Shown one piece after another: positions 16,902 through 42,228 of a DNA stretch of 64,000 bases. The first letter of the stretch is position 1; each line of letters begins with the position of its first letter. The stretch spans positions 1,514 to 65,513 of the forward strand of contig CAZKAT010000003.1 in NCBI GenBank assembly GCA_964551135.1, given 5' to 3'. The position numbers and the translations under genes were made by a program. The notes beneath the pieces are model-generated. The model saw only the letters and a program-made list of their open reading frames with translations, searched no databases and had not been told where the DNA came from. Origin of the DNA: an uncultured Gammaproteobacteria bacterium. Lineage in GTDB: Bacteria; Cyanobacteriota; Vampirovibrionia; LMEP-6097.

Positions 16902-19900
16902 CTAGATACAAGCTCCAGCGGCTACAAGTCCAACCCAACTAGAACCATCAAAGAAGCATAATTCATTCGTATCAGAATCTACGTAAATATCTCCCAGAGA
17001 AGGCGAACTTGGTGCCGCTGACCTTGGTTCCAAACGCATAAGATCAGAAATATGAACAGTTCGCTGTGGAATATTAGTACCAACTCCTAATCGTTTATTC
17101 ACATTGTCCCAATATAAACTAGATTGGTCTTCAATAAGCACACCAGAAGTATTTGAGAATAATATTGAACCATTAGTAAAGTTACCGTCTAAATTAGCAC
17201 CATTAATAGTTGTGGCCTTAACAGTTGTGATATTACCCGTAGTAAAATTAGCTGTAACACCATTAATTTGTGCAGTTGCATTGATAGTACCAGTAACATC
17301 AAGAGCAGTTGCTGGGCTGGATTGATTTATACCAATCTTAACAGCGGAAGTATCTACATAGAGTTGATCGGTGTTAACAGCAAAATCTCCAGTAGTTGAA
17401 AGAGATACGTTTAAGTTAGTACCTGCTCCTGGGGTGATAGTCATGGCACCAGTACCAGTGAAAATAGTTGAAGCACCATCAAAACTTATATTAGGATCTG
17501 CAATAGAAACTGTCGTACTATTAATATCCAAAGGTGCATCCGCAGCCACAGTAAGAGTTTTACTAGCTTTAGTAAAACTCAATGCACCATTGCCTCCTAG
17601 AGCACTACTATCATTGAATTGAAAATTAGTATTAGCTCCTGCTGCCACAAACGATACACTACCATTAGTTAAATTATATTTAGTGCCACCATCATCCATA
17701 AAGTAAAGCTTAGAGTTAGCGGTATTAACATAGATCTGACCAAAGTTACTGATAGCGGTTCCAGGTGCAGCAACCTCATATAGAGCGGTAATACCATTGA
17801 CAGTAAGCAGAGCATCAGCATTAGTAGTACCCACTCCTAATCTATTAGCTGTTCTATTCCAGTAGAGTTTAGAATTATTCTGACTAATTATCCCAATATT
17901 ATTAGAGAAAAGTATGGAACCGTTAGTGAAATTACCATCTAAGTTAGCACCGTTTATAGTTGTAGAGTTAACCGTAGTTATATTGCCAGTAGTAGCTCCC
18001 ACGGTTGTAGCATTAACAGTAGTTATATTACCAGTAGTAGCTCCCACGGTTGTAGCATTAACAGTAGTTATATTAGCAGTAGTACCTGTATAGGTTCCTA
18101 CATAAGCGTTTGCAAAGCGAATTGCATTGGAACCTAAATCATATAACGCGTTACCATTAGGACCAATATTACCTACTACTTGTAATTTAAAACTACTAGG
18201 CAAGCTAGTTCCTATTCCTACATTCTGCGCAAAATATCCATTCTTAGTTACATGAAGATCACCTACGACATCCAAGTTATAAGCAGGAGTATTAGTTCCA
18301 ATTCCAAGTCTATTAAAAGCATCATCCCAAAAAAAGGATACTTCATCTGCATTAAAGGAACCTGGCGTAAGTCCTCTGAATTGAATTGCACCAGGGATAG
18401 TTCCCTGTGATGTATCAGATCCATTATTGACCACATTTACATTTGCCCAGTAAGCAAAGCCACTAGCATCAGTAGTGAGTACATAACCTACAGTTGCACC
18501 ATCCCTCATGGTAATTCCATTTGTAGTTAATAAACCTCTTACTTCTAATTTACTAGCTGGAGTATTAGTACCAATTCCCATTCTATTATTAGCACTATTC
18601 CAATAAACTTGAGAATTATTTTGGCTTATAGCTCCAGCAACATTTGAAAATAGAAGTGAGCCATTGGTAAAATTCAAATCAACTGTGTTGATATAAGCAT
18701 TTGCAAAGCGAGTTGTGTTTGTACCTAAATCATATAAAGCACTAGCATCAGGTCCAATACTACCTGCTACTTGCAATTTAAAACTACTTGGCGTAGCAGT
18801 CCCGATTCCAACATTAGTAGCGCTGGTATCTACATAAAGATGATTAGTGTTAACAGCAAAATCTCCAGTAGTAGCAAGAGACACATTTAAATTAGTACCA
18901 GCACCTGGAGTAATAGTCATAGCACCGGTCCCAGTGAAAGTAGTTGAAGCTCCATCAAAAGCAATATTAGTATCTGCAATAGAAACAGTTGTACTATTTA
19001 TGTCTAAAGGCGCATCAGCAGGGACAGTTAGAGTTTTACTTGCTTTAGTAAATGTTAGAGCTCCATTACCACCAAGAGCATTATTATCATTAAATTGAAA
19101 ATAAGTATTAGCTCCAGCTACCGTAGAAGCACTACCATTAGTTAGGCTGTAAACCACACCACTATCATCTTTAAAATACAATCTAGAGTTCGTAGAATTT
19201 ACATAAACTTGTCCAAAGTTACTCATTGTACTTGGCACTGTAGTTTTAAATAAAGCCAAAACCCCATTAATAGTCAGCATGGCATCAGCATTACTGGTTC
19301 CAACTCCTAATCTAGAATTAGTTCTATCCCAATAAAGCTTAGAATTGTTTTGAGAAATTACACCAGCAGCATTTGAAAACAGAAGCGAACCATTACTAAA
19401 GTCACCATCAAAGCTAGTCGTAGTACCGTTAAAAATACCAGAGACAATGACGTTAGTAAAGCTTGCATTAACACCATTCACAGAGCCAGATGAAAGAACC
19501 TTAGTTAAATTAGCAGTAGTACCATTAATATTAGTAGTAGATAAAACTTTATTGCTAGTGATAGTGCCGCTTAAATTTGCAGCAGTACCATTGAAATTAG
19601 TAGCTAAAACTGTACCTGCAATATAAGCATCATCATCTACCTCAAGATCATCGGCGGCAATAATATCACCAACACCATTTATAAAAGTAGCAATTCCTCC
19701 TCCTACATCTAATTGAGCTGCAGGACTACTGTCACCAATGGCTACCATATTAGTTGATCCTTGCGCAAAAATCAGATGAGTTTGACTGCTTCCTTCTACT
19801 CTAAAATTCACTGAATTAGCAGCTTCATTGAAAATTGCTCCACCATTAGCATTCAATATGATATCTGCTCCAGTTATAGTAGTACCTCCTATAACTGCAC

Positions 19901-21197
19901 TTTGATTTCCAGAACTAGCCCTAGGATATAAATATGTACCTTGATTAACCCATTCACTAGCAGTCGTAAGTAATTGAAGGTTTTGCCAACTAGCTAAACC
20001 GCTAGCATTAGAAACTAATATAAATCCTGCTCTTTGACTTCCATCTTTGATTTGCAATGATCCATTAAAAATTGCATTACCTTGTACTAATCCATTATGA
20101 GTAAAACTAAAAGGACCATTCACCAGGGTTCGTCCATTTAAAAAAGCATTCTGCAGCTTTCCATTACTAGTAAATGATAAAAGAGCATTTATATTACCAC
20201 CATTAGCAATAGAACCAAGAGGACCTTGCGCACCTTGGGGACCTGGGATACCTTGTGCTCCTGAACCACCTGGAATTCCTGCTGGTCCCCTCGGACCAAT
20301 AGGTCCCTGGGGTCCCTGAGAGCCAAGTATTGACCGCGTTCCATTGCTAGTAAAATAAAAATTTACACCATCGTATTCTATAGCTCCATCTACGATATTA
20401 TTAGTTAAAAGTCCTGCCTCAAATTTAATACCAGGACTTTCTCCATCACCAGCTTTAGCAGTAAAATAAGCAGGCTCAGTAATATCGATAACATTACCAT
20501 TACCTTGACCTCCACCAGATCCTTTGGAACTAGTTGATTTGATATATTGAATTCCTTTTATTGAAATTGGTATGGTAACTTTATAAAATCCCGATCTAGA
20601 TTTTATGACACTAGTAGTAATTTGTTTTTGTGGTTTAGCTTCAAAAACCACGTTATCAAAAATATATTGCAACTGACAATCATTAAAATTATTCTGATTA
20701 CAATCTGCATTAGTAAAGGCTTTCAGGGTTTCATTATTTTGGCCTGATAAATTTATAGCAGAGATAGTAGTTTGATAAGTATTTATTAGATTCTTATTAC
20801 TGTTATAAACTTCAAACTGAAGCGTTTTAGAATTCTTAGTAAAATATCCAATATTTATATTTAGTGTTCTGATTTTAGTTTCAGGAGCAAAGGTTATATT
20901 TTGAGTATTGAGAAATGTTCTAATATTGTTATTGATTTCAAAACAATCTATTTTAAAACTACTATTATTGTTGTTATTACTTATATAAAGATCTGTTGAA
21001 TCTATTTTAATATTAATACTATGCGTCTCTTTAAGATTAAGTTCTTGATCTTGCTTAAGTAAATAAAATTTTAGATTTGGATCAGAACCACTTATGAAAT
21101 CTATTGCAATATATGGATCAGATACGGCATTAACATAGCAAAAATTAAGAAGAAGCAAAAATATAAAAATTCTTCTGGTTAATTTATATTTATTCAT
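16902..21197 (-). CDS. Large secreted collagen-like repeat protein (possible surface fibre/adhesin)
   Basis: 1431 aa; N-terminal signal-peptide-like segment; collagen G-X-Y run (GSQGPQGPIGPRGPAGIPGGSGAQGIPGPQGAQGP); two roughly 240-aa near-identical internal modules; recurrent motif NGS(I/L)LFSN...LYW(D/N)...RLG(V/I)GT; very T/N/G/S-rich. Confidence 0.7.
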   Translation of the reverse strand: MNKYKLTRRIFIFLLLLNFCYVNAVSDPYIAIDFISGSDPNLKFYLLKQDQELNLKETHSINIKIDSTDLYISNNNNNSSFKIDCFEINNNIRTFLNTQNITFAPETKIRTLNINIGYFTKNSKTLQFEVYNSNKNLINTYQTTISAINLSGQNNETLKAFTNADCNQNNFNDCQLQYIFDNVVFEAKPQKQITTSVIKSRSGFYKVTIPISIKGIQYIKSTSSKGSGGGQGNGNVIDITEPAYFTAKAGDGESPGIKFEAGLLTNNIVDGAIEYDGVNFYFTSNGTRSILGSQGPQGPIGPRGPAGIPGGSGAQGIPGPQGAQGPLGSIANGGNINALLSFTSNGKLQNAFLNGRTLVNGPFSFTHNGLVQGNAIFNGSLQIKDGSQRAGFILVSNASGLASWQNLQLLTTASEWVNQGTYLYPRASSGNQSAVIGGTTITGADIILNANGGAIFNEAANSVNFRVEGSSQTHLIFAQGSTNMVAIGDSSPAAQLDVGGGIATFINGVGDIIAADDLEVDDDAYIAGTVLATNFNGTAANLSGTITSNKVLSTTNINGTTANLTKVLSSGSVNGVNASFTNVIVSGIFNGTTTSFDGDFSNGSLLFSNAAGVISQNNSKLYWDRTNSRLGVGTSNADAMLTINGVLALFKTTVPSTMSNFGQVYVNSTNSRLYFKDDSGVVYSLTNGSASTVAGANTYFQFNDNNALGGNGALTFTKASKTLTVPADAPLDINSTTVSIADTNIAFDGASTTFTGTGAMTITPGAGTNLNVSLATTGDFAVNTNHLYVDTSATNVGIGTATPSSFKLQVAGSIGPDASALYDLGTNTTRFANAYINTVDLNFTNGSLLFSNVAGAISQNNSQVYWNSANNRMGIGTNTPASKLEVRGLLTTNGITMRDGATVGYVLTTDASGFAYWANVNVVNNGSDTSQGTIPGAIQFRGLTPGSFNADEVSFFWDDAFNRLGIGTNTPAYNLDVVGDLHVTKNGYFAQNVGIGTSLPSSFKLQVVGNIGPNGNALYDLGSNAIRFANAYVGTYTGTTANITTVNATTVGATTGNITTVNATTVGATTGNITTVNSTTINGANLDGNFTNGSILFSNNIGIISQNNSKLYWNRTANRLGVGTTNADALLTVNGITALYEVAAPGTAISNFGQIYVNTANSKLYFMDDGGTKYNLTNGSVSFVAAGANTNFQFNDSSALGGNGALSFTKASKTLTVAADAPLDINSTTVSIADPNISFDGASTIFTGTGAMTITPGAGTNLNVSLSTTGDFAVNTDQLYVDTSAVKIGINQSSPATALDVTGTINATAQINGVTANFTTGNITTVKATTINGANLDGNFTNGSILFSNTSGVLIEDQSSLYWDNVNKRLGVGTNIPQRTVHISDLMRLEPRSAAPSSPSLGDIYVDSDTNELCFFDGSSWVGLVAAGACI
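17080..17900. repeat. Internal direct repeat, copy 2, within the collagen-like gene (approximate bounds)
   Basis: Near-identical antisense ORFs at 17371..17622 and 18847..19098 (about 90% identical over 83 aa) show two copies of a roughly 0.8-kb segment spaced 1476 bp apart. Confidence 0.7.
17986..18075. repeat. Perfect 45-bp tandem repeat (2 full units plus partial flanking copies) inside the collagen-like gene
   Basis: Units 17986-18030 and 18031-18075 are identical (ccagtagtagctcccacggttgtagcattaacagtagttatatta); encodes repeated TTVNATTVGATTGNI; unit length is a multiple of 3. Confidence 0.8.
18560..19380. repeat. Internal direct repeat, copy 1, within the collagen-like gene (approximate bounds)
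   Basis: Same as copy 2; protein-level modules NGSLLFSNAAGVISQNNSKLYWDRTNSRLGVGT... and NGSILFSNNIGIISQNNSKLYWNRTANRLGVGT... Confidence 0.7.
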
Positions 21198-21304: not shown

Positions 21305-22051
21305 TTATTTAGTTAGCTTAATCGCTTGTGTAAGTCTCCAAAGAAATATCTTCTTATGGTCTCCTTGTTCTAATACTTTCGGCACCTTCTCTCCTCTGAA
21401 GTCCGCTGGGCGAGTGTAATGGGGATATTCGGATAATTTTAAATTCTCTAAATCTTCTTTCTTTAGTCCGGTCTCATCAAGTAATGCTTGTAGTTCTCTC
21501 TTAGTAACTTGCAGCTCTTCTAGTTTCTTTAAATAATTTATTTCAGAATGGGTTTCTTCTTCGATACTAGTCTCGTCTCCTAACACTCCCGGGATATGGC
21601 GTAAAGTAGCATCGATAATAGTCAGCGCCGGCAACTCACCACCAGTGAGCACATAATCACCAACCGAGACTTCCATAGTCGCTCTATCTCTAATCCTCTG
21701 ATCAAAGCCTTCATAACGTCCACATAAAATTATCAGATGTTCTTTCTTTGATAATTCTTGAGCAAGTCTTTGATCAAACTTTCTGCCAGAAGGACTAGTA
21801 ACTATGATCTCAGCCTTAGCATAATTAGGAATAGCTTCCAAACAATCTATCATTGGCTGGCATTGTAAGACCATTCCAGCACCACCACCATAAGGAGTAT
21901 CATCTACACGCTTGTGCTTATCCTTAGTATAGTCACGAGGATTGTGCACATAAAGTTCATAGAGCTTTTGCACTTGAGCTATACCCAAGATACTTGCTTC
22001 ACAGTAGCTAGTGACCATATCTGGAAACAAACTTAGTACATCAATTCTCAT
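21305..22051 (-). CDS. trmD: tRNA (guanine37-N1)-methyltransferase
   Basis: 248 aa; MRIDVLSLFPDM N-terminus, YGGGAGMV and C-terminal YPHYTRPADFRG...VP motifs typical of TrmD. Confidence 0.9.
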   Translation of the reverse strand: MRIDVLSLFPDMVTSYCEASILGIAQVQKLYELYVHNPRDYTKDKHKRVDDTPYGGGAGMVLQCQPMIDCLEAIPNYAKAEIIVTSPSGRKFDQRLAQELSKKEHLIILCGRYEGFDQRIRDRATMEVSVGDYVLTGGELPALTIIDATLRHIPGVLGDETSIEEETHSEINYLKKLEELQVTKRELQALLDETGLKKEDLENLKLSEYPHYTRPADFRGEKVPKVLEQGDHKKIFLWRLTQAIKLTK

Positions 22052-22055
22052 ATAC

Positions 22056-23180
22056 CTATAGATCCAAGAGCTCAGTGATAAGTTTAATCTTAGAAGATCT
22101 AAGATACTTAGCTCTAAAAGAGACCTGTATCAAATCTTCTAATCTATCTTGATTAAGTTTCTCAGTAAAAATCACTTTCTTAAAGCTAGCGAGCAAGAAA
22201 TCATATTTCATTTCTTTTTTGGTCATTCTTTGTAAATGTGCCTGAATCAAGCTTATAGACTCTGCTTGATTAGTTTGAAGATATTTAAGTACTTGATCTT
22301 GTTCTTTCACAAAATTATCTACTAGATCTTTATTTATCTCATAGAACTCGCTATCTACAACCAGTAGTGTAGTAGGAAACTTATTAATAAATTTCAATTG
22401 ATCAAAAATAAACGCATTCTCACTACCTTCTAATTCTTCTATGACACCATAAGGTGGTCTTTCAGCCAGCTCTGTTACATTAATCATGCCTTTAGAAGTA
22501 AGTAAAGTACCCCAAGGCTCAGCAACTAAAGCAGCATCTATAGAGCCAGTGAAGAATGCCATCTCTAACTCAGCAGGGTGTATCGGAATATATTGCAATT
22601 TTTTATCAAATGATATTAACGGTAACTCCATTAATGACTGGATCTGAGGATGAGAAGCATCATATCTCTTAGCTTGATCTTGCAAACGATTCACCAGAAT
22701 CTTAGCTAGCAAATCTTGAGTATTACCCCACTGCGGCACTGCGATCTTCTTAACATTGAAACCCTTATCAGGTTCATAGTAGCTAGGTAATATCAAACTA
22801 TTACCACCAATGCAGCTAAGCTTAAGTAACTTGAGTTTCACGCCTTTACTGAGAGCATTAATATATGGACCAGGACCTATATAACCTAAATCCAGATTAT
22901 GAGTTAGAAGTGCATCTAATAAATAACCACCCGAGGTAAATGATAATGACTTTGTCTTCGTGAACTTACCAGCTTCCAAACCCACTATAGGGACAGCATG
23001 CGTCATATTCAGTAAATAACCTAGGCGTAATTTATCAACCTTAGTCACTTGCATGCGCTTAGAGCATGACGTTAGAAATAAGGATAGACCTATAATCAGC
23101 ACGAAGGTAGGTGCCGTCATCCTGAGGAGCCTGCGAAGCAGGCGACGTAAGGATCCACTTATACTAAAGTTTTTCTCCAT
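22056..23180 (-). CDS. Substrate-binding lipoprotein, NMT1/SsuA-like (ABC transporter periplasmic component)
   Basis: Lipoprotein signal with lipobox LTSC; body resembles NMT1/THI5/SsuA-type binding proteins. Start set at ATG 23180 (MEKNF...); alternatives are 23120 and the track start 23330. The N-terminal region overlaps palindromic element A. Confidence 0.5.
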   Translation of the reverse strand: MEKNFSISGSLRRLLRRLLRMTAPTFVLIIGLSLFLTSCSKRMQVTKVDKLRLGYLLNMTHAVPIVGLEAGKFTKTKSLSFTSGGYLLDALLTHNLDLGYIGPGPYINALSKGVKLKLLKLSCIGGNSLILPSYYEPDKGFNVKKIAVPQWGNTQDLLAKILVNRLQDQAKRYDASHPQIQSLMELPLISFDKKLQYIPIHPAELEMAFFTGSIDAALVAEPWGTLLTSKGMINVTELAERPPYGVIEELEGSENAFIFDQLKFINKFPTTLLVVDSEFYEINKDLVDNFVKEQDQVLKYLQTNQAESISLIQAHLQRMTKKEMKYDFLLASFKKVIFTEKLNQDRLEDLIQVSFRAKYLRSSKIKLITELLDL

Positions 23181-23226
23181 TATAGTGGATCCTGACGGTC
23201 GGGCTTCGCCCTCCCTCAGGATGACG
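23115..23226. repeat. GC-rich palindromic element A (RPE-like), 112 bp
   Basis: Perfect 13-bp terminal inverted repeat CGTCATCCTGAGG (23115-23127) / CCTCAGGATGACG (23214-23226) plus inner inverted GGATCCACT/AGTGGATCC; GC-rich island in AT-rich DNA; related to elements at 39469-39577 and 41697-41797. Confidence 0.75.
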
Positions 23227-23262
23227 ATTTTCGACTTACGTTTATGCTTATGCATTACTTTG

Positions 23263-23941
23263 TTACTTTGCTTTCTTGTTGTTATGATTCCAAGACTTAA
23301 CACCAGAAGTTTTAATAGAAACCACTGCACCAGGCTTACCTGAAACTGGTCCCTTAACTAATAAAAGTCTTTGCTCTGGGTCATACTTAACTACTTTCAC
23401 TTTAGTGATAGTTACTACATTGTCACCCATTCTTGCAGGCATGCGCTTACCAGGAAACACACGACCTGGAGTTGTACCAGCACCAAGTGAACCAATGATA
23501 CGCTTAGATTTAGAACCGTGACTACGTCTACCAACTCTCATGTTATAGAGCTTAATACCACTCTGAAACCCTTTACCAATCGAAGTGCTAGTAATATTAA
23601 CTTTCTCAAGATCTTTGAAAAAATCTTCAGCATTAACTGCATCCCCAATATTCACACCTTCGATATTCTCGTTAGTTCTAAATTCTTGTAACTTAGATAA
23701 ACTTGGTAAATTTTTCTTTTGTAAATTTCCTCTTTCAGGTTTAGTTAAAAGTGTGTCTCTCTTCTTGAAAGCTCCAAGTTGAAGCGCATAATAACCATCA
23801 CGCTCTTTAGTTTTAATATCAGTTATGATGTTCTCTGCAATCTGAATAACTGTTACTGGTACTACGTCACCCTCAGCATCAAAGACTTGAGTCATGCCTA
23901 GTTTCTTACCGATTAATCCGAAATCTTTAGTTGTTGTTGCC
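23263..23941 (-). CDS. rplC: 50S ribosomal protein L3
   Basis: Start at ATG 23941 (MATTTKDFGLIGKKLGMTQVF) preceded by AGGAGA RBS; conserved L3 blocks KGFQSG, HGS, PGRVFPGKRM; the track start 24000 adds 19 non-conserved residues. Confidence 0.85.
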
Positions 23942-24147
23942 ATAATTTTCTCCTGTTTTTTTATTAGACTTTGTTTCACATTAGAGTAATTCCGAGACAA
24001 GTCTATCTATACAAGGCCCTAATAAATTAAGACCTACACCTAAGCACAGTATTCTATGGCTAGAACCTTCATGCATAAGGCGTAAGGCTAGATTCTAGCA
24101 ATTGAAGATGCCTAAGTATTATTAAGAAAAGATTCAACAATAGTATC

Positions 24148-29469: not shown

Positions 29470-29964
29470 TTATTTATAAGCACAACCCTTATCATGATCA
29501 TTAACCATACCTACTGCTTGCATGAAAGCATAACAAATAGTCGCTCCGACAAATTTAAACCCATGCTTCTTAAGATCCTTGCTCATAGTATCAGCATCTT
29601 TAAAAGACCAAAGATAATCATTAAAGCTTAGACCTTCTTTCTTGAGCTGTAAGTATGCTTTAGCGTTGATGATCACAGAGTTAATTTTAAGTCTATTGCG
29701 AATGATACCAGCATTATTCATAAGCTTCTCTACCTGCTTTTCAGTAAACTTAGAGACCTTCACTGGATCGAAATTCATAAACGCCTTTCTATAATTCTCG
29801 CGCTTATTAAGCACAGTCTCCCAGCTCAATCCAGCCTGTGCACCTTCAAGGCAAAGCATCTCAAACAATTTCTGATCATCATAGATAGGTACTCCCCATT
29901 CCTTATCATGATAGTCAACGTATAAGGGGTTAGCCAAATTAACCCAATGACAACGCTTCTTCAT
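29470..29964 (-). CDS. tag: DNA-3-methyladenine glycosylase I
   Basis: 164 aa; YHDKEWGVP and LEGAQAGLSWETVL motifs typical of Tag; start overlaps the mutS stop by 4 nt. Confidence 0.85.
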   Translation of the reverse strand: MKKRCHWVNLANPLYVDYHDKEWGVPIYDDQKLFEMLCLEGAQAGLSWETVLNKRENYRKAFMNFDPVKVSKFTEKQVEKLMNNAGIIRNRLKINSVIINAKAYLQLKKEGLSFNDYLWSFKDADTMSKDLKKHGFKFVGATICYAFMQAVGMVNDHDKGCAYK

Positions 29965-32717
29965 AGACTCGATTCAAACAACGGCAACTTACCTATATCA
30001 AGCGAACCATCTTCACTAATAGCATCAGTAATATCGTGCTGATCAAGTTGCTTTTTAGTCATACCAAGCTTGCGGCTACGCTGTGCCTGAAGCTGATTAT
30101 TAATCGCTTTCGCTCTATCCAATACTGACTTCGGCAAACCTGCTAAGCGAGCGACTTCTATACCATAGCTGCGATCAGCTGAACCTTCCACTACTTTATG
30201 CAAGAACTCTATTCTAGTCTTAGCATTAGGACTATCATTTTCTACTACTAATACTTGATAGTTTTTAATACAAGGATATAACCTGTCTAAATTTGCAAGC
30301 TCATGATAGTGAGTTGCAAATATAGTGCGCGCTTGAGTAGTCTTAGCAATATGCTCAACTATAGACCAAGCAATCGCTACACCATCATAAGTACTAGTAC
30401 CTCTACCGATCTCATCTAAAACTATAAAACTTCTATCAGTCATAGAATTAATTATGGTCGCTGTCTCGTTCATCTCCACCATAAACGTAGATCTACCAGA
30501 TGCTAGATCGTCACTTGCGCCAATACGCGTGAAAATTCTATCTACTAATCCAATACATGCTTTAGTCGCTGGCACATAGCTACCCATCTGCGCAAGCAGG
30601 ATGATAAGAGCATTTTGGCGCATATAAGTACTTTTACCTGCCATGTTGGGACCAGTTAAAATCATCAGCTTACATTCCCTGCGAAAATCGTCATCTGCTG
30701 CGTTACGCTCGTCCCTCGAACTGCTCATTGACGTTCTAGTCAACTCCGCGTTCTCGGGACTCGCAAGCCTTGCATCTGAACGATTTTCGGCGGGGATATT
30801 TCCCACACCGAGCGTTATATCATTCGGCACAAACTCTCCAAACTTAAGCTTCTGCTCAAGAACAGGATGTCTTCCTTCTTCGATATACAGTTCATGAGAA
30901 TTAAGAAGTTCAGGACGCTTATAGTTTCTTTCTAGTGCAAGTAATGCCATAGACAGTAAAGCATCTAGCTGTGCGACTTGCAGTGCTATTTGTTTAATAA
31001 TCGGTGACTTAATTGCAAGTGATTTACGTAAACCAGAATAGATCTCATATTCTAAAGCATTACGCCTAGATTCTGCATGAGTAACTTTCTCCTCAAACTC
31101 AATTAGTTCCTCGGTTACAGCTCTGATGGTATTCACCATGGTCTGCTTGATCACATAGTGCTCTGGAAGTTTCTTTTCATTAAGTCTAGAGGTCTCGATA
31201 AAATAACCGTGTACCTTATTAAAACTTACTTTAAGGTTTTTAATGCCAAGCTTCTCTCGCTCAGCATCTTCAAAGTTCTTCATCCAAGCTTCAGAATCTT
31301 CTACTAAAGAAATCAATTCATCCAACTCTGCATTATAACCATGTTTAAGAATATTACCCTCGGTAACAGCAAGAGCCGGATCATCTTTCACCGCATTATC
31401 CACTACTCTAATAAAGTCCAAAGCTTGCTCTGGAATATATTTCAAGCTTGTAAGCAAACCAGATTGCAAACCCTGCATCAAAGCAGAGAGCTGCGTCACT
31501 ATAACCATTGAATGTTTCAATGCCACAGCTTCGCGTGGACTGATAAGTTCACTTGCAAGTCTATTAGAAAGCCTATCTATATCATAAGTCTGTGCTAGTA
31601 AATCCTTAAGTTCATTACATAGACTTGGATCTGAGACCAGTTCAGTAACAGCATCCAATCTAGCGTTAATAGCAGGGATATCATATAGTGGTTGCTCCAT
31701 CCATGCACGCAGTTTACGTCTGCCAAGTTTCGAAGACGTGCGATCTATCGCTGAGAAAAACGAACCAGCACTATTACCTCCCAAGGTTTTATTAAGCTCA
31801 AGATTGCGGCGAGTGCTTGCATCAAGCATCATATACTCACTTACATGATAGCTACGAATTTGATCAAAATTCTTAGCTGAGTTATTAGAGAACTCTGCTC
31901 CTTGAGTTTCTTTCAGATATTCAATAATCGCACCAGCAGCACGAAGTGCATAGCCATTGCTTTCTGTGCCCAAACTATCCTCAATCTGTTTCACTGAATT
32001 AAGCTTGAAGAGATCTTCTATATTTTGCACCGCAAGCTTAGTATCAAAATTCCGGTAATTAAATCCACTCAGATAAAATTCAATATTCAACTGATCTAAA
32101 TTAAACATCAATTCTTCTTCTCTGACGATTTGTCCTTCTAGCTTGCCGGCAGGTTTAGATGGCACTATGATTTCTGAAGCATTAATTCTTGCTAACTCTT
32201 GTTCTAAGTATTCAGCTTTAATTTCAGTAAGATAGAACTCGCCTGTAGAGATGTCTGCATAAGCCAAACCATAATGAGAATATGGAGTAGTCGAGTAAAT
32301 CGCGAGAATAAAATTATTCTGATATGAATCTAGAAACTCGAGATCATTGATAGTGCCAGGAGTGAAAACTTTAGTAATCTCGCGCGGCACTAAACCCTTG
32401 CAAGTTTTAGGGTCAGCCATCTGCTCAGCGATATAAACCTTATAATTGCGCTCGAGTAATTTAGCGACATAAGGTCTAATAGCGCGTGCTGGCACTCCTG
32501 CCATAGGAATACGCCCACCTGGATAAGTACTTTCAGGACGTCCGGTTAGAGTTATTTCCAGTTCTTTAGCAATAGTCTCAGCATCTTCAAAAAAGGTCTC
32601 ATAAAAATCCCCCATTCTAAATAAAAGTACTGCTCTACCTTGAAGCCTAAGCCTGGCATTGAGGTATTGCTGCATTACTGGAGTAAAATTAGAGAAATCT
32701 TGAGTTGGGGTCGACAT
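29961..32717 (-). CDS. mutS: DNA mismatch repair protein MutS (carries an in-frame repeat-element insertion)
   Basis: 918 aa; N-terminal mismatch-binding region (MQQYL...GDFYE) and ABC ATPase Walker A GPNMAGKST; about 33 extra residues immediately N-terminal of the Walker A are encoded by repeat element C. Confidence 0.9.
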   Translation of the reverse strand: MSTPTQDFSNFTPVMQQYLNARLRLQGRAVLLFRMGDFYETFFEDAETIAKELEITLTGRPESTYPGGRIPMAGVPARAIRPYVAKLLERNYKVYIAEQMADPKTCKGLVPREITKVFTPGTINDLEFLDSYQNNFILAIYSTTPYSHYGLAYADISTGEFYLTEIKAEYLEQELARINASEIIVPSKPAGKLEGQIVREEELMFNLDQLNIEFYLSGFNYRNFDTKLAVQNIEDLFKLNSVKQIEDSLGTESNGYALRAAGAIIEYLKETQGAEFSNNSAKNFDQIRSYHVSEYMMLDASTRRNLELNKTLGGNSAGSFFSAIDRTSSKLGRRKLRAWMEQPLYDIPAINARLDAVTELVSDPSLCNELKDLLAQTYDIDRLSNRLASELISPREAVALKHSMVIVTQLSALMQGLQSGLLTSLKYIPEQALDFIRVVDNAVKDDPALAVTEGNILKHGYNAELDELISLVEDSEAWMKNFEDAEREKLGIKNLKVSFNKVHGYFIETSRLNEKKLPEHYVIKQTMVNTIRAVTEELIEFEEKVTHAESRRNALEYEIYSGLRKSLAIKSPIIKQIALQVAQLDALLSMALLALERNYKRPELLNSHELYIEEGRHPVLEQKLKFGEFVPNDITLGVGNIPAENRSDARLASPENAELTRTSMSSSRDERNAADDDFRRECKLMILTGPNMAGKSTYMRQNALIILLAQMGSYVPATKACIGLVDRIFTRIGASDDLASGRSTFMVEMNETATIINSMTDRSFIVLDEIGRGTSTYDGVAIAWSIVEHIAKTTQARTIFATHYHELANLDRLYPCIKNYQVLVVENDSPNAKTRIEFLHKVVEGSADRSYGIEVARLAGLPKSVLDRAKAINNQLQAQRSRKLGMTKKQLDQHDITDAISEDGSLDIGKLPLFESSL
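30692..30790. repeat. Repeat element C (about 97 bp), in frame within mutS
   Basis: About 90% identical to 38316-38412 in gatB (shared core catctgctgcgttacgctcgt...cattgacgt...agtcaactccg...actcgcaagccttgcatctg); GC-rich relative to flanks. Confidence 0.8.
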
Positions 32718-37057: not shown

Positions 37058-37882
37058 GTGAATACAAACTCTAGGCGTGATGCTGATTATGATTTCTCAC
37101 GCCGTTCTAGAATAGATCCTATTTTCAGTCAGACACAAAAACCAAAAAGTTTCATTGCTGATAATGGTGGAAGTTTTATGGGGGATTTACACAATCCTCT
37201 CTTAGAAAACAGTATACATGCCCCTGCTAGATTAGATTACAGACCTAAATTTACTGAATATGGCTTAGATGATTTAATGCATCCAGAAACAATAGACAAA
37301 GCAAAAGACTGGACTGAAAAAATTACCGACTTCTTTAAGATCGCAGGTGATGCTACAAACAAAGTATTCTCACAACTCGGAGATATAACTAATGTTGGAA
37401 TTAATAAAACAGCAAGCAATCCTATGATCGTTACTGCTGGTGCAGCAATCGTAGGATTAATAGCTGGACTTAAAGCTGTAAAAAATATTCTCCATGGTAT
37501 TAAAGTAGCAATGGATCCTAAAAGTGATCCTAAACTAGGCTGGTTGCCACATGAGATATTAGGTATATTACAGGGTGGTTTATTCTTTGGTCTAACTTCT
37601 TCATTCTTTGGTAAGAGAAATTTCCTTACTGAATTCCAAAATGGTAAGCCAGTAGTAAAAGTCAAATCAATTATAGGAGTAGGCGTAGCTGCCCTTGGTT
37701 TAAGTGTCGCAATGGCACTCGCTAAGAGCACTTCAGTATTCCGCAAAGTTCCATTAATAGGACCTGCTATGCAAGAAATCAGTGAAACTGTATTTGGAGC
37801 AGCTAAAGAAGTAACTGTACCAACAGAAGACAATCAGAATGCTGCTGGACACGGAGCTGCTTTACCTGGAATGCCAGGCTAG
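37058..37882 (+). CDS. Hypothetical membrane protein
   Basis: 274 aa with several Gly/Ala-rich hydrophobic helices; start uncertain (GTG 37058 or ATG 37178 with GGTGGAAG upstream). Confidence 0.4.
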   Translation: MNTNSRRDADYDFSRRSRIDPIFSQTQKPKSFIADNGGSFMGDLHNPLLENSIHAPARLDYRPKFTEYGLDDLMHPETIDKAKDWTEKITDFFKIAGDATNKVFSQLGDITNVGINKTASNPMIVTAGAAIVGLIAGLKAVKNILHGIKVAMDPKSDPKLGWLPHEILGILQGGLFFGLTSSFFGKRNFLTEFQNGKPVVKVKSIIGVGVAALGLSVAMALAKSTSVFRKVPLIGPAMQEISETVFGAAKEVTVPTEDNQNAAGHGAALPGMPG

Positions 37883-39444
37883 AGTAATTTAGCAAGTATC
37901 TCATTTACCATTGCTGGCGAAGCTTTACCCTGCGTAAGTTTCATAACCTGTCCCACAAAAAACCCTTGAATCTTTGCGTTACCAGATTTATATTGTTCTA
38001 CTTGTTTTGGATTAGCAGAGATCACTTCTTTAATAACAGTCTCCAAAGCTCCTGTATCAGTAATCTGTGCTAGACCTTTATCATCAATTAACTTCTGCAC
38101 TGAACCACCATTAACCAAAAGCTCATTAATAATATCGTTCTTAGCAATATTATCCGAAATAATGCCTTGATCTATCAGTTTAATCATCTCAGCTAGTAGA
38201 GTTGCTGTAAGTTTAGTTTCTCTGATACTGAGTTTACTCTCGTTGAGGTAAGCAGCTACAGGACCTACCAACCAATTAGCAGCCTTAACAGCATTAGAGC
38301 CTATCCGCAAAGTCCCATCTGCTGCGTTACGCTCGTTCCTCGGACTACTCATTGACGTCTCAGTCAACTCCGTGTCCTCGGAACTCGCAAGCCTTGCATC
38401 TGGGAGCTTTTCGGATAGGCTCTTAATAACCTCTTCAAAATAGATCGCCGTATCCACTTCATCTGTAAGCGTAGTCGCTGTATCTTCATTAATATTAAAC
38501 TCTGCTATATATCTACTACGCTTCTGTTGCGGTAATTCTGGCAGAGAAGTTTTAGCTGTATCAATTTGCTTTTGGTTTAAAGTGAGAGGTAATAAATCTG
38601 GCTCAGGGAAATATCTATAATCATGAGCATCTTCTTTCGATCTCATAGAATGGGTTTTACCAGTGTTCTCATCGAAAAGTCTAGTCTCTTGAACCACAGT
38701 ACCAGCTTGATCTAATATTTCTGATTGACGTTTATATTCATACTCTATAGCGCGAGAAATAGATCTAAAGCTATTAACATTCTTGATCTCAGCGCGAGTA
38801 CCGAACTTCTCAGCACCAGGTTTATTCAATGAAATATTAATATCACATCTAAGCGAGCCTTCTTGCATATTGCCATCACATACTCCTATATATAGAAGTA
38901 TTTTACGCAACTCTTTCACGTAAGCCACAGCCTCATCAGCAGAACGTATATCAGGCTCTGAAACTATCTCTATAAGCGGCGTTGAAGCACGATTAAGATC
39001 TACTAGTGAATAATCTGAACCATGTAATCTCTCAGCACCTGAGTGTACTAACTTACCCGCATCTTCTTCCATGTGAATTCTTAATATGCGCACATCTTTA
39101 GAACCAATATTTAGCTTGCCATGATTACAGATAGGCTTATCGTATTGAGAGATCTGGTAACCCTTAGGTAGATCTGGATAGAAGTATTGCTTGCGATCGA
39201 ATTTAGAATTAAGATCTATCTGACAACCTAATGCTAGTCCAGCTTTAATCGCATACTCTACTGCGCGCTCATTCAATACTGGTAAAACTCCTGGATAACC
39301 CATACATACTGGGCAGGTATTCGCGTTCGGCTCTGCTCCAAACTTAGTAGAACAAGAACAAAATAACTTAGACTCAGTTCTGAGCTGAGCATGGACTTCT
39401 AGTCCGATAACGATTTGGTATTTTAATGCAGTTTCTGTTGCCAT
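37879..39444 (-). CDS. gatB: Asp-tRNA(Asn)/Glu-tRNA(Gln) amidotransferase subunit B (carries an in-frame repeat-element insertion)
   Basis: N-terminal YQIVIGLEVHAQL and CSC...CPVCMGYPG motifs; start set at ATG 39444 (MATETALKYQ...) matching canonical GatB N-termini; the track start 39522 would extend into palindromic element B. Confidence 0.9.
   Translation of the reverse strand: MATETALKYQIVIGLEVHAQLRTESKLFCSCSTKFGAEPNANTCPVCMGYPGVLPVLNERAVEYAIKAGLALGCQIDLNSKFDRKQYFYPDLPKGYQISQYDKPICNHGKLNIGSKDVRILRIHMEEDAGKLVHSGAERLHGSDYSLVDLNRASTPLIEIVSEPDIRSADEAVAYVKELRKILLYIGVCDGNMQEGSLRCDINISLNKPGAEKFGTRAEIKNVNSFRSISRAIEYEYKRQSEILDQAGTVVQETRLFDENTGKTHSMRSKEDAHDYRYFPEPDLLPLTLNQKQIDTAKTSLPELPQQKRSRYIAEFNINEDTATTLTDEVDTAIYFEEVIKSLSEKLPDARLASSEDTELTETSMSSPRNERNAADGTLRIGSNAVKAANWLVGPVAAYLNESKLSIRETKLTATLLAEMIKLIDQGIISDNIAKNDIINELLVNGGSVQKLIDDKGLAQITDTGALETVIKEVISANPKQVEQYKSGNAKIQGFFVGQVMKLTQGKASPAMVNEILAKLL
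38316..38412. repeat. Repeat element D (about 97 bp), in frame within gatB
   Basis: About 90% identical to 30692-30790 in mutS; encodes ARLASSEDTELTETSMSSPRNERNAADG, paralleling ARLASPENAELTRTSMSSSRDERNAADD in MutS. Confidence 0.8.
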
Positions 39445-39468
39445 ATATGGAGATTTTATCATATTAGT

Positions 39469-39577
39469 CGTCATCGCGAGGAGCGAGCGCAGCGAGTGAC
39501 GTCGCGATCCAGACGAATGCACAATATTTATGACTGGATCCCGACGTCGTCCACTTCGTGGACTCCTCGGGATGACG
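39469..39577. repeat. GC-rich palindromic element B (RPE-like), 109 bp
   Basis: Terminal inverted repeats CGTCATCGCGAGGAG (39469-39483) / CTCCTCGGGATGACG (39563-39577) and inner GGATCCAG/CTGGATCC; same family as element A; sits between gatB and nfi, and the nfi ORF terminates inside it. Confidence 0.75.
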
Positions 39578-41696: not shown

Positions 41697-41797
41697 ACGC
41701 AGTTATTTTGTCATTATTCGAGGCAGTTTGCTCCTGAGCGACCGGAGTGTATATGAACATACATGAGGATCGCGAAGGAGCAAACTAACGAAGAAGA
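41697..41797. repeat. Palindromic element E (about 100 bp), upstream of ssrA
   Basis: Imperfect inverted repeat TTTTGTCATTATTCGAGGCAGTTTGCTCCTGAGCGA / TCGCGAAGGAGCAAACTAACGAAGAAGAATGACAAAAG; termini resemble the GTCAT...GAGG ends of elements A and B. Confidence 0.6.
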
Positions 41798-41823
41798 ATG
41801 ACAAAAGAACAAGTCTTCTTTAT

Positions 41824-42228
41824 GGGGGCGTATAGCTTTGACAGGGGTCAGAGATGGTAAAACGCGAGTCCAGGTAGCCTAGGTCCTGGTAAAGCCAAGG
41901 CAAAACATAAGTGTAAATGAATTTGAAGTAACTGTAGCGCAAGCTACACCTGCTGAGCGTTTCGCTCAAGCAGCTTAGTCCCGACATACTGCGGACACTT
42001 CCTCGCTGCTTAACGGCTAACCGGTTAGGATTGTGAGGCACTAAACAGGTCAGTGCATGAATCATACTTTGATAAGTTTAGTATGAGGAGTAAAGATCAT
42101 AAGCTTAGAACCCGTTGAGTGTCTATGCTCTTAAGCACGGCAACAGCTTAGATTTATAGACTACACTCGTAGTGGTTTATCGTTGAAAACTTTTGGACGC
42201 GAGGGGCAGTTCCTCGCCGCCTCCACCA
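41824..42228 (+). ncRNA. ssrA: tmRNA (transfer-messenger RNA), standard one-piece form
   Basis: 5' GGGGGCG pairs with 3' CGCCUCC (7-bp acceptor stem with G3:U70 alanine identity pair) followed by encoded ACCA; 5' GGGGGCGUAUAGCUUUGACAGGGG resembles the tmRNA tRNA-like domain; T-arm GCGAGG/CCUCGC; internal open frame ending ...AQATPAERFAQAA then UAG, consistent with an Ala-Ala-terminated tag. The overlapping 81-aa minus-strand ORF is considered spurious. Confidence 0.75.

Follow-up and report, generated by a model that had tools for sequence, protein, structure and literature searches.

A palindromic repeat inserted in frame in the signal-peptide region of an NMT1/SsuA-type lipoprotein gene and its possible translation as part of the secretion signal

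The window analysed here, a 64-kb stretch of DNA, carries on its minus strand the gene of an NMT1/SsuA-type ABC substrate-binding lipoprotein between rplC (ribosomal protein L3; 23263..23943, with a GGAG Shine-Dalgarno sequence) and trmD (21305..22051), and the same gene order is found in the loci of relatives. The open reading frame of the lipoprotein spans 22056..23330, its longest supported form is 22056..23255, and Pfam matches it to NMT1_2 (PF13379; E 4.8e-9). Homologues number 96, some annotated as NitT/TauT substrate-binding protein, with the best named ones in Caenarcaniphilales and Melainabacteria. The stop codon of rplC lies 7 nt before the ATG at 23255, and trmD starts 4 nt past the stop of the lipoprotein gene, a spacing that fits a coupled operon. 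The hydrophobic core and lipobox, APTFVLIIGLSLFLTSC (23064..23114), form an 18-residue uncharged stretch followed by L-T-S-C, which matches the lipobox pattern [LVI][ASTVI][GAS]C; the Cys (codon 23066-23064) is conserved in every orthologue read. Directly before this core stands the Arg-rich segment SLRRLLRRLLR. A Tat signal (S/T-R-R-x-F-L-K) was considered for this segment and rejected, as it contains RR but has Arg at the hydrophobic +3 position.

The 5' end of the gene is occupied by the first of the two window copies of a palindromic repeat, element A, at 23116..23225 of the minus strand (110 nt; 23115-23226 with its flanking C and G). Its outer stem is formed by the rplC-side arm CGTCATCCTGAGG (minus strand, 23214..23226), which is complementary at 13 of 13 positions to the gene-side arm CCTCAGGATGACG (23115..23127). 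The latter contains an in-frame ATG (23120-23118) that is itself part of the terminal repeat (..GGATGAC) and is thus enclosed in the outer stem. Inside it, a distal side hairpin, GGGC-GAA-GCCC (23201..23211), is supported by sequence and fold, and a gene-proximal one, GCCTGC-TTC-GCAGGC (23129..23143), encodes part of RRLLRRLL; at the latter position, other family copies differ in stem sequence and keep the pairing. The inner stem pairs 23184..23197, which has an SD-like AGGA, with 23146..23159, which has a GGATCC core (13 of 14 positions complementary), and closes an AT-rich central loop (23160..23183) holding an in-frame ATG (23180-23178, MEKNF...) 9 nt downstream of the AGGA. The RNA fold is predicted at −72.5 kcal/mol (z = −8.8), with none of 200 shuffles as stable; shuffling gives expected counts of 0.00 for the 44-nt arm and 0.13 for the 12-nt terminus. 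Together with the next base, the element amounts to 37 codons exactly (VILREGEARPSGSTIMEKNFSISGSLRRLLRRLLRMT), in register with the lipoprotein gene, and phase 0, the only open phase of the element, is the phase of that gene. The gene-proximal arm encodes SLRRLLRRLLR in the same frame as TAPTFVLIIGLSLFLTSC. The proposals of the first-pass annotation that one arm encodes this n-region and that a candidate start lies in the central loop are thus both borne out. A TATAAT hexamer (23184-23179) overlaps the loop ATG. A promoter within the element was rejected, as this hexamer has no −35 match and lies across the ATG rather than ahead of it, and as a scan of the gene strand of the element for promoter-like and terminator-like sites returned none. 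An intrinsic terminator for rplC was rejected too, since the element has neither a T-run nor a terminator-like site.

The second copy lies between nfi and gatB (39470..39576), and both copies match the family pattern GTCATYGCGAGG ... CGTnnnGATCCA ... TGGAT ... CTCnnnATGAC. The shared architecture comprises a terminal inverted repeat, a GC side hairpin in each arm, an inner GGATCC/GGATTG stem and a variable AT-rich loop, and it recurs in at least 118 stretches of other genomes from many bacterial phyla; 110 full copies were extracted for comparison. The first window copy is 82% identical to a copy in locus L006, the first 47 nt of the second are identical to one in L097, and up to four copies occur in one 7.5-kb locus (L023). 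A canonical copy matches 14 places on a Novosphingobium megaplasmid, and the places on Novosphingobium plasmids are unannotated; the window copy itself had no match in the plasmid collection. In Rfam, neither the window element nor the canonical copies matched any family, the sole match being a sub-threshold miRNA hairpin (27 bits against a gathering score of 135). A literature search by terminal sequence strings returned only unrelated primer matches, and one on Melainabacteria palindromic repeats found nothing relevant. The element A family is without a name, absent from Rfam and spread across many phyla. The element is MITE-like in its 13-bp perfect terminal repeats and small size (110 nt) and in having no transposase coding capacity. 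No direct target-site duplication was found in the flanks of the 110 copies, and the usual c before and g after the element only lengthen the palindrome by one pair. Vertical orthology between the window element and that of a sister species (L001) was considered and rejected, as the elements are 67% identical and their flanks 76–84%.

How the element is expressed depends on where translation starts. The frame contains three ATGs, at 23255, 23180 and 23120, none of which lies beyond the element; the only start past it, GTG 23102, would leave a 12-residue signal. The earlier choice between 23180 and 23120 was therefore incomplete, since it missed the ATG just past the rplC stop. It had also been suggested that the element would be irrelevant to the protein if translation began at 23120 on a transcript starting downstream of the element; this arrangement is impossible, because ATG 23120 lies inside the terminal repeat, and the element thus cannot be irrelevant to the lipoprotein. 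Judged by a lipoprotein signal rule of the PROSITE PS51257 type (Lys or Arg in the first 7 residues, Cys at position 15–35), none of the three starts in the window passes in full: the Cys falls at 19 from ATG 23120, with no Lys or Arg ahead of it, at 39 from ATG 23180 and at 64 from ATG 23255. The predicted energy needed to open the ribosome-binding window is 5.8 kcal/mol at ATG 23255, 24.8 at 23180 and 30.7 at 23120, and that for the codon alone is 7.5 at 23180 and 18.5 at 23120, whose codon lies in the outer stem. Shine-Dalgarno sequences precede only 8 of 36 open reading frames, and a −10 box 4–11 nt before the ATG is found in 17 of 36. The lipoprotein gene and trmD have neither and start 4–7 nt past the upstream stop, as expected for coupling.

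Comparison with relatives bears directly on this choice. Full, half or remnant copies of the element are present at the rplC/lipoprotein junction of eight orthologous loci, and the comparison with orthologues lacking the element that had been called for is provided by L124, L125, L127 and L129-131, which carry plain Sec-type signals such as MKKIFILLLFLTLNSC. In L203, L208 and L209, a GTG-CAT start overlaps the rplC stop, and the distance from the GTG to the core is 42, 51 and 51 nt, respectively, each divisible by three. No other in-frame start in L203 or L209 leaves a usable hydrophobic core, and the sole alternative in L208, a TTG, is itself within the half-element. A workable signal peptide in any of these three orthologues therefore requires that the half-element (e.g. 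RHCERKRSNPV) be translated to form the N-terminal region. The MHGSKLLAMTSVCLLLALSSC of L201 (90% identical) fits both lipoprotein rules only if translation is taken to run from the upstream ATG across a 14-nt element terminus, the terminal ATG alone giving 12 residues. Read from the upstream start, L201, L203, L206 and L209 all satisfy the lipoprotein rule. The earlier either-or claim, that the element either provides part of the secretion signal or structures the start region, stands: every ATG lies in or upstream of the element, and three orthologues can form a signal peptide only by translating a half-element. The sequence caaagtaATGCATaa of the window matches the rplC end caaagtGCATAA of L203, L208 and L209 and also aagtaATGCAC of L201, an ATG-CAT correspondence that is a short alignment in a spacer that evolves fast. 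From this alignment, we propose that ATG 23255 and the nine codons after it (MHKHKRKSKI; 23226..23255), upstream of the element, may represent the ancestral start and N-terminal positive region. ATG 23255 is the best-supported start of the three, by its place just past the rplC stop, its positional agreement with the ATG/GTG-CAT start of relatives and its opening energy, by far the lowest.

We favour, at a probability of about one half, the reading that element A, as a non-autonomous palindrome of RPE/MITE type, is inserted in frame as 37 codons in the signal-peptide region and read from ATG 23255, probably on a transcript shared with rplC. Initiation would occur at ATG 23255 by termination-reinitiation, 7 nt past the rplC stop, and ribosomes would translate straight across the hairpin. 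The product would begin with a 63-residue signal peptide composed of MHKHKRKSKI, 37 element-encoded residues, the hydrophobic core and the LTS/C lipobox. The gene-proximal arm would place RRLLRRLLR directly before the core, so that the positive-inside requirement would still be met. Signal peptidase II would then cut off the entire insert and leave the mature protein unchanged. That the insert is discarded with the signal peptide would explain why the insertion is tolerated, and it also means that proteomics of the mature protein would miss a translated insert. The frame of the element is open from ATG 23255 throughout into the lipoprotein gene, and its single open phase agrees with both the gene and ATG 23255, which by a rough estimate would happen by chance in about 7% of cases; translation across the element is the only model that predicts both agreements. 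Translation of palindromes also appears to be tolerated in this genome, to judge from a second repeat, element B, which lies in frame in gatB and mutS. In gatB, it is a 43-residue insert (residues 352-394) with no counterpart in solved structures, the protein having 527 aa here and 483 aa in its closest relatives, 44 residues shorter; in mutS, it lies within a 49-residue unmatched stretch (residues 627-675), again with no counterpart in solved structures. No further copies of element B were found in the fetched loci. Several observations count against reading across element A. A 63-residue signal with Cys at 64 is far beyond the usual 15–35, ATG 23255 has no Shine-Dalgarno sequence, and the predicted −72 kcal/mol hairpin, 30 nt into the reading frame, could stall ribosomes. 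Furthermore, in L001 the equivalent site reads TGT-CAT, with nothing but GTG codons farther upstream. Nor does an open frame by itself count for much as evidence of translation, because the family is ORF-permissive, its ATG phase being open in 144 of 220 element orientations.

Two other readings keep translation within the element. In one, the loop ATG 23180 is the start (MEKNFSISGSLRRLLRRLLRMT...), so that the element gives the start codon, the SD-like AGGA and the whole Arg-rich N-terminus, and its distal half becomes a 5' leader. A public gene call of the same sequence (P0097, 374 aa) begins there, the codon itself sits in frame in the apical loop and is cheap to open, and the resulting peptide has a net charge of +5 ahead of the uncharged stretch that runs through the core to the lipobox. 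The full ribosome-binding window, on the other hand, is costly because the AGGA sits in the inner stem; the Cys falls past the usual 35; and coupling is no help 82 nt from the rplC stop. The loop ATG is also no family feature and is out of frame in L001, and a start there leaves the in-frame ATG 23255 unexplained. We consider this start unlikely. Equally doubtful is a start at ATG 23120, with the rest of the element acting as an untranslated hairpin that throttles or insulates expression after the highly expressed rplC, or that is cut by RNase III in a Correia-like manner to free the start; RNase III processing is documented for the Correia/NEMIS repeat hairpins (PMC2229807). This ATG, from the terminal GGATGAC, gives MTAPTFVLIIGLSLFLTSC, the only candidate of normal length, and at both window copies the terminal ATG shares the frame of the gene downstream. 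The right terminus is moreover read in a single frame: it gives L-x-M-T in the window and in L001, L201 and L122, and the degenerate terminus of L206 (CTCGCAATGGC) gives L-A-M-A. A general rule of start-codon donation by the terminal ATG was rejected, as two of four informative element ends are in frame, which is uninformative. Against the 23120 start, its N-terminal region has no Lys or Arg, the codon is buried in the perfect 13-bp stem, and it lacks a Shine-Dalgarno sequence, a −10 box and a coupling partner. In L001, L201, L122 and L206, the equivalent ATG would place only 8–12 residues ahead of the Cys, fewer than a signal peptide needs; the terminus must therefore be internal coding sequence there.

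The insertion could instead be neutral or harmful junk in a poorly expressed or decaying gene, with its in-frame layout due to chance. The ORF-permissive family, the failure of all three starts to fit the textbook lipoprotein rule and the hypervariability of the region between rplC and the lipobox among orthologues about 90% identical would all agree with this. It is nevertheless very improbable, given that the mature protein is an intact reading frame, about 90% identical to three orthologues and with 73 invariant columns across 17 sequences, that synteny and the tight trmD spacing are preserved, and that in-frame element sequence is kept at the junction in several lineages. A broader and quite speculative idea, to which we assign a low probability, is that the junction is a long-maintained dual-use module, in which the hairpin sets the translation passing from rplC to the transporter gene and the arms are repeatedly co-opted as a charged signal N-terminus, refreshed by repeat copies from across phyla. 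Hints of this are that sister species carry different subfamily copies at the same site and that a copy in a gammaproteobacterial MAG shares a stretch of 47 identical nt.

The element family resembles known repeats to differing degrees. Rickettsia palindromic elements (RPE) are found both between genes and, in frame, within conserved protein-coding genes (PMC2229807, PMC10969869), and they share with the present family the multi-copy palindromes of about 100–150 nt, terminal inverted repeats and an open reading phase. In-frame insertion is seen here for element B in gatB and mutS and is probable for element A in the lipoprotein gene. The likeness would be one of architecture, in another host and across many phyla rather than one genus, and element A would lie in a cleavable signal peptide rather than in a folded protein body. 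Rickettsiales MAGs (L014, L028, L110 and L119) carry the element A family, which does not prove identity with RPE. The closest functional parallel is a Yersinia YPAL/RU-2 MITE fused to YPO1552, where the repeat forms part of a predicted signal peptide (Delihas review, PMC2229807). As with element A, it is a small palindromic repeat, in frame and part of an exported protein's predicted signal. The Yersinia repeat contributes a hydrophobic cluster that helps to create a putative new exported protein, whereas element A is inserted in the existing signal of a conserved lipoprotein, gives the charged N-terminus and the L-L-x-M-T start of the hydrophobic core, and has orthologues that keep differing fragments. 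Correia/NEMIS repeats of Neisseria form long hairpins that can serve as RNase III substrates and alter downstream expression (PMC2229807). Element A is likewise palindromic, probably co-transcribed with its neighbours and, as a long hairpin, a candidate RNase III substrate, and this likeness is the basis for the leader model with a start at 23120. Correia elements, however, have TA target duplications and 24-bp terminal repeats with an IHF site or promoter, whereas neither a duplication nor a promoter-like site was found for element A. ERIC/IRU and other small mobile sequences of enterobacteria form stem-loops with open phases and are sometimes fused to genes in frame (PMC2229807); ERIC/IRU and element A share stable stem-loops and open reading phases but are unrelated in sequence, termini and hosts, ERIC being mostly intergenic.

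What is directly shown at this locus is the anatomy and frame of the element, its predicted RNA structure, the correspondence of the start codon with that of relatives and the need for element translation in three orthologues; we infer which start this genome uses, that the gene is co-transcribed with rplC, and that the lipoprotein is exported and cleaved. Taken together, this is a clear, though not unprecedented, case of selfish DNA that has become part of a secretion signal, and pieces of the repeat occupy the equivalent site in relatives. To the protein-coding palindromes, of which those of Rickettsia are best known, it adds a case from a lineage of non-photosynthetic cyanobacteria (Melainabacteria/Caenarcaniphilales-like), and it points to a repeat family that is common to many phyla, without a name and not in Rfam. 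It also shows that automatic start-codon calls beside such repeats are unreliable. The series of orthologues, with the full element, its left half, its right terminus only or no element, offers material on how selfish DNA turns into coding sequence. A cleavable signal peptide would be a natural safe harbour for such repeats, as the insert can give the positive N-terminus and is then discarded.

The lipoprotein gene (22056..23330 on the minus strand) encodes a substrate-binding protein with an NMT1_2 domain (PF13379, E 4.8e-9), and the named ones among its 96 homologues are annotated as NitT/TauT or ABC substrate-binding proteins. Its 5' region contains the first copy of element A (A1), a 110-nt palindrome at 23116-23225. 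The outer arms (CGTCATCCTGAGG/CCTCAGGATGACG) pair at 13/13 positions and the inner arms, with a GGATCC core, at 13/14; each arm has one small GC hairpin and an AT-rich loop lies at the centre. Its RNA fold reaches -72.5 kcal/mol (z = -8.8), a stability equalled by none of 200 shuffles, and both arm sequence and terminus are absent or almost absent from shuffled sequence. As the first-pass annotation claimed, SLRRLLRRLLR is in frame with TAPTFVLIIGLSLFLTSC; it comes from the gene-proximal arm. Together with one base, A1 makes exactly 37 codons. It has one open phase in each orientation, and this is the phase in use relative to the lipoprotein gene and to ATG 23255 alike. Since two of three phases are open in most members of the family, an open frame through A1 is weak evidence by itself. 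The canonical in-frame starts are confined to ATG 23255, ATG 23180, ATG 23120 and GTG 23102, the last leaving only 12 residues before the lipobox Cys. The earlier choice between 23180 and 23120 named two ATGs that are indeed in frame, the former within the A1 loop as then read, but overlooked ATG 23255, which lies 7 nt past the rplC stop (TAA 23265-23263) and from which the frame is open across all of A1.

Orthologues free of the element have short, ordinary lipoprotein signals directly after rplC (MKKIFILLLFLTLNSC, with GGAGG upstream; MKPFLYFCLVLALNSC; MMRGLISKIL...NCSC). Element-A sequence occurs at exactly this junction in eight other orthologous loci. Full elements are present in L001 (90% protein identity), where the element is from another subfamily, and in L122, where an additional solo terminus follows. 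The left arm alone is present in L002, upstream of a GTG start, and in L203, L208 and L209, where it is read in frame. L206 has a short, degenerate element whose middle contains the start ATG, and L201 (90% identity) has only the right terminus, 14 nt long. L203, L208 and L209 share a GTG-CAT start lying across the rplC stop (aaaGTGCATAA), 42, 51 and 51 nt, respectively, from the hydrophobic core. L203 and L209 have no further in-frame start that leaves a workable core, and the sole alternative in L208, a TTG, likewise falls within the half-element. Because no workable start avoids it, these three must use the translated half-element (RHCERKRSNPV and similar) as their N-terminal region. L201 (MHGSKLLAMTSVCLLLALSSC) satisfies both lipoprotein rules, Lys/Arg within the first 7 residues and Cys at position 15-35, only if reading begins at the ATG that overlaps the rplC stop and continues across the element terminus. 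In the window as in L001, L201 and L122, the right terminus reads L-x-M-T, in the same frame and immediately ahead of the hydrophobic core; the degenerate terminus of L206 gives L-A-M-A. Since the window's caaagtaATGCATaa aligns with the relatives' caaagtGCATAA and with aagtaATGCAC of L201, ATG 23255 seems to be the gene's conserved start. Different repeats occupy the junction in other orthologues, which marks it as a general hotspot: another GGATCC-cored palindrome (CTTAAGGATCCGCT...AGCGGATCCTTAAG) lies there in L128 (370-500), and four tandem copies of ccgttca in L202 (255-345).

The unusual order rplC, lipoprotein gene, trmD, bacA is kept across the clade (including L001, L002, L203 and L206); rplC itself is isolated here (window 21305-24000), outside any S10 operon. 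It has a GGAG Shine-Dalgarno sequence. Both this signal and a -10-like one are missing ahead of the lipoprotein gene and of trmD, each of which starts 4-7 nt past the preceding stop. This is a translationally coupled operon layout, and the lipoprotein gene is presumably co-transcribed with rplC; A1 has no promoter-like or terminator-like site on the gene strand. After the rplC TAA, CAAAGTAATGCATAA (23226-23265) resembles a relic of the relatives' rplC 3' end (CAAAGTGCATAA, ending in QSA and the stop), and the rplC stop appears to have shifted upstream in this lineage. Across the window, a Shine-Dalgarno sequence precedes only 8 of the 36 clear ORFs. In 17/36 (starts examined include 9108, 16888, 29452, 40289 and 50849), a -10-like hexamer (at least 5/6 matches to TATAAT) ends 4-11 nt 5' of the ATG, against 8.3% of all ATGs, a pattern pointing to frequent leaderless mRNAs in this Melainabacteria-like genome. 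The window is part of a 288-kb metagenome contig; for GatB and the binding protein, the best relatives with a name are MAGs labelled Cyanobacteria bacterium, Caenarcaniphilales and Melainabacteria.

Element B, a palindromic family distinct from A, is inserted in frame in gatB (38296-38423, gene 37879..39462, minus) and in mutS (30674-30797, gene 29961..32717, minus), in the latter just before the Walker A motif; protein-coding palindromes are therefore a fact of this genome. The two copies share a 99-nt core at 87% identity. GatB residues 352-394, encoded by the element, are unmatched in Aquifex GatB, and the protein has 527 aa here versus 483 aa in the closest relatives. The 17-18-nt inverted repeats around the core differ between copies; because in each pair one arm belongs to the native coding sequence, the other looks like an inverted, not direct, target-site duplication. 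A third, different palindrome lies at 41702-41810, with 18-nt outer arms (89%) and 28-nt inner arms (75%); the tmRNA gene (41824-42228, Rfam RF00023) follows 14 nt downstream. The product of ORF 16902-21197 (minus), 1431 residues long, contains a collagen-like G-x-y run (GPQGPIGPRGPAGIPGG...), and the ORF has long internal repeats in 300-nt units spaced by about 1.47 kb.

We give a probability of about 0.5 to ATG 23255 as the start used, with ribosomes reading through A1, because it adjoins the rplC stop, is accessible and matches the relatives' starts, and because of the double in-frame condition and the tolerance of in-frame palindromes in this genome. When the rplC-SBP transcript is modelled over 321 nt, opening the -18..+12 window costs 5.8 kcal/mol at ATG 23255, 24.8 at ATG 23180 and 30.7 at ATG 23120. 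The corresponding N-termini place Cys at 64, 39 and 19, with net charges before the core of +10, +5 and 0; Lys/Arg occurs in the first 7 residues of the first two and not of the third, and none of the three conforms in full to the textbook lipoprotein rule. Initiation at the loop codon ATG 23180, the start chosen in the public gene call and one with an SD-like AGGA, is unlikely, as it sits in RNA structure. ATG 23120 is an equally doubtful start: it lies in the A1 outer stem, and the hairpin would first have to melt or be taken away, with RNase III cutting of the kind shown for Correia elements (PMC2229807) as one possible way; its equivalents in four orthologues would give signals far too short to function. 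This codon belongs to A1's own terminal repeat (..CCTCAGGATGAC), and thus no transcript or start makes A1 irrelevant to the lipoprotein, contrary to the proposal that a transcript beginning downstream and translated from 23120 would do so. With read-through from ATG 23255, A1 would separate the hydrophobic core from the original positive N-terminus by an insert of 37 residues, in which the proximal arm keeps positive charge adjacent to the core. On export, predicted cleavage between LTS and the Cys would remove the entire A1-encoded insert, and its being thrown away would explain why the insertion is tolerated.

A pattern from the two window copies, scanned over a species-representative genome collection, gave at least 118 matching stretches in other genomes. 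Hosts among the matches listed, with MAG taxa as given in record titles, include Rhodomicrobium and other Alphaproteobacteria, Rickettsiales, Micavibrio, Gammaproteobacteria, Elusimicrobium, Planctomycetaceae, Acidobacteriaceae, Bdellovibrionales, Opitutales, Chlorobiaceae, Caenarcanales, Gastranaerophilales, Babeliales and Patescibacteria MAGs; the element is also found in the isolate Solimonas flava. The 110 full copies extracted among these matches span 79-167 nt, with all three mod-3 length classes represented, and the canonical order is GTCATCGCGAGG, GC hairpin, CGTGGCGATCCAG, a 15-40 nt loop, CTGGATTGCTTCG, an optional hairpin and CTCGCAATGAC. Side hairpins vary in sequence with pairing kept (GCCTGC-TTC-GCAGGC, GCAACC-TAC-GGTTGC, GTCCAC-TTC-GTGGAC, TCTGCC-TAC-GGCAGA). 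Rfam holds no matching family, copies on a Novosphingobium megaplasmid carry no annotation, and a literature search by terminal sequence strings found nothing relevant. We treat element A as an unnamed repeat family of MITE/RPE type; it shares terminal repeats with classical MITEs but lacks their direct target duplication, none being visible at the flanks of the 110 copies, which are mostly c on one side and g on the other.

A1 and the L001 element are 67% identical, whereas their flanks are 76-84% identical, and each is nearer to other copies: the L001 element to the second window copy (A2, 75%) and to Gammaproteobacteria MAG copies (77-78%), and A1, whose closest match among those listed is another copy in the same Gammaproteobacteria MAG, to that copy (82%). 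Judged from these identities, therefore, the site is one re-occupied or converted by other family members, and not a single drifted insertion. A2 (39470-39576) lies between nfi (endonuclease V) and gatB, and its first 47 nt (window 39530-39576) are 100% identical to L097 3838-3884. Copies in the 'uncultured Gammaproteobacteria' MAG (CAZELI, GC 38%; loci L097, L006, L015, L026, L044 and L064) are 79-83% identical to the window copies. Such sequence relationships suggest either that copies were recently exchanged across phyla or that contigs are mis-binned or mislabelled. The nfi frame enters A2 for 15 codons (SSRGVHEVDDVGIQS), ending at a stop in the loop, and the terminal ATG of A2 shares the gatB frame and lies 5' of the native start (MATETALKYQ).

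Protein-coding palindromes have been described for Rickettsia RPEs (PMC2229807, PMC10969869), and in-frame palindromic repeats are known from these as well as from ERIC and YPAL elements (PMC2229807); a Yersinia repeat forms part of a predicted signal peptide in YPO1552 (PMC2229807). The in-frame palindrome is a shared feature; the lineage here is a new one, and the repeat family appears to be a different one. What is unusual in the present case is that the palindrome sits in what would be a cleavable lipoprotein signal, and that it belongs to a series of orthologues, each keeping different fragments of the element.
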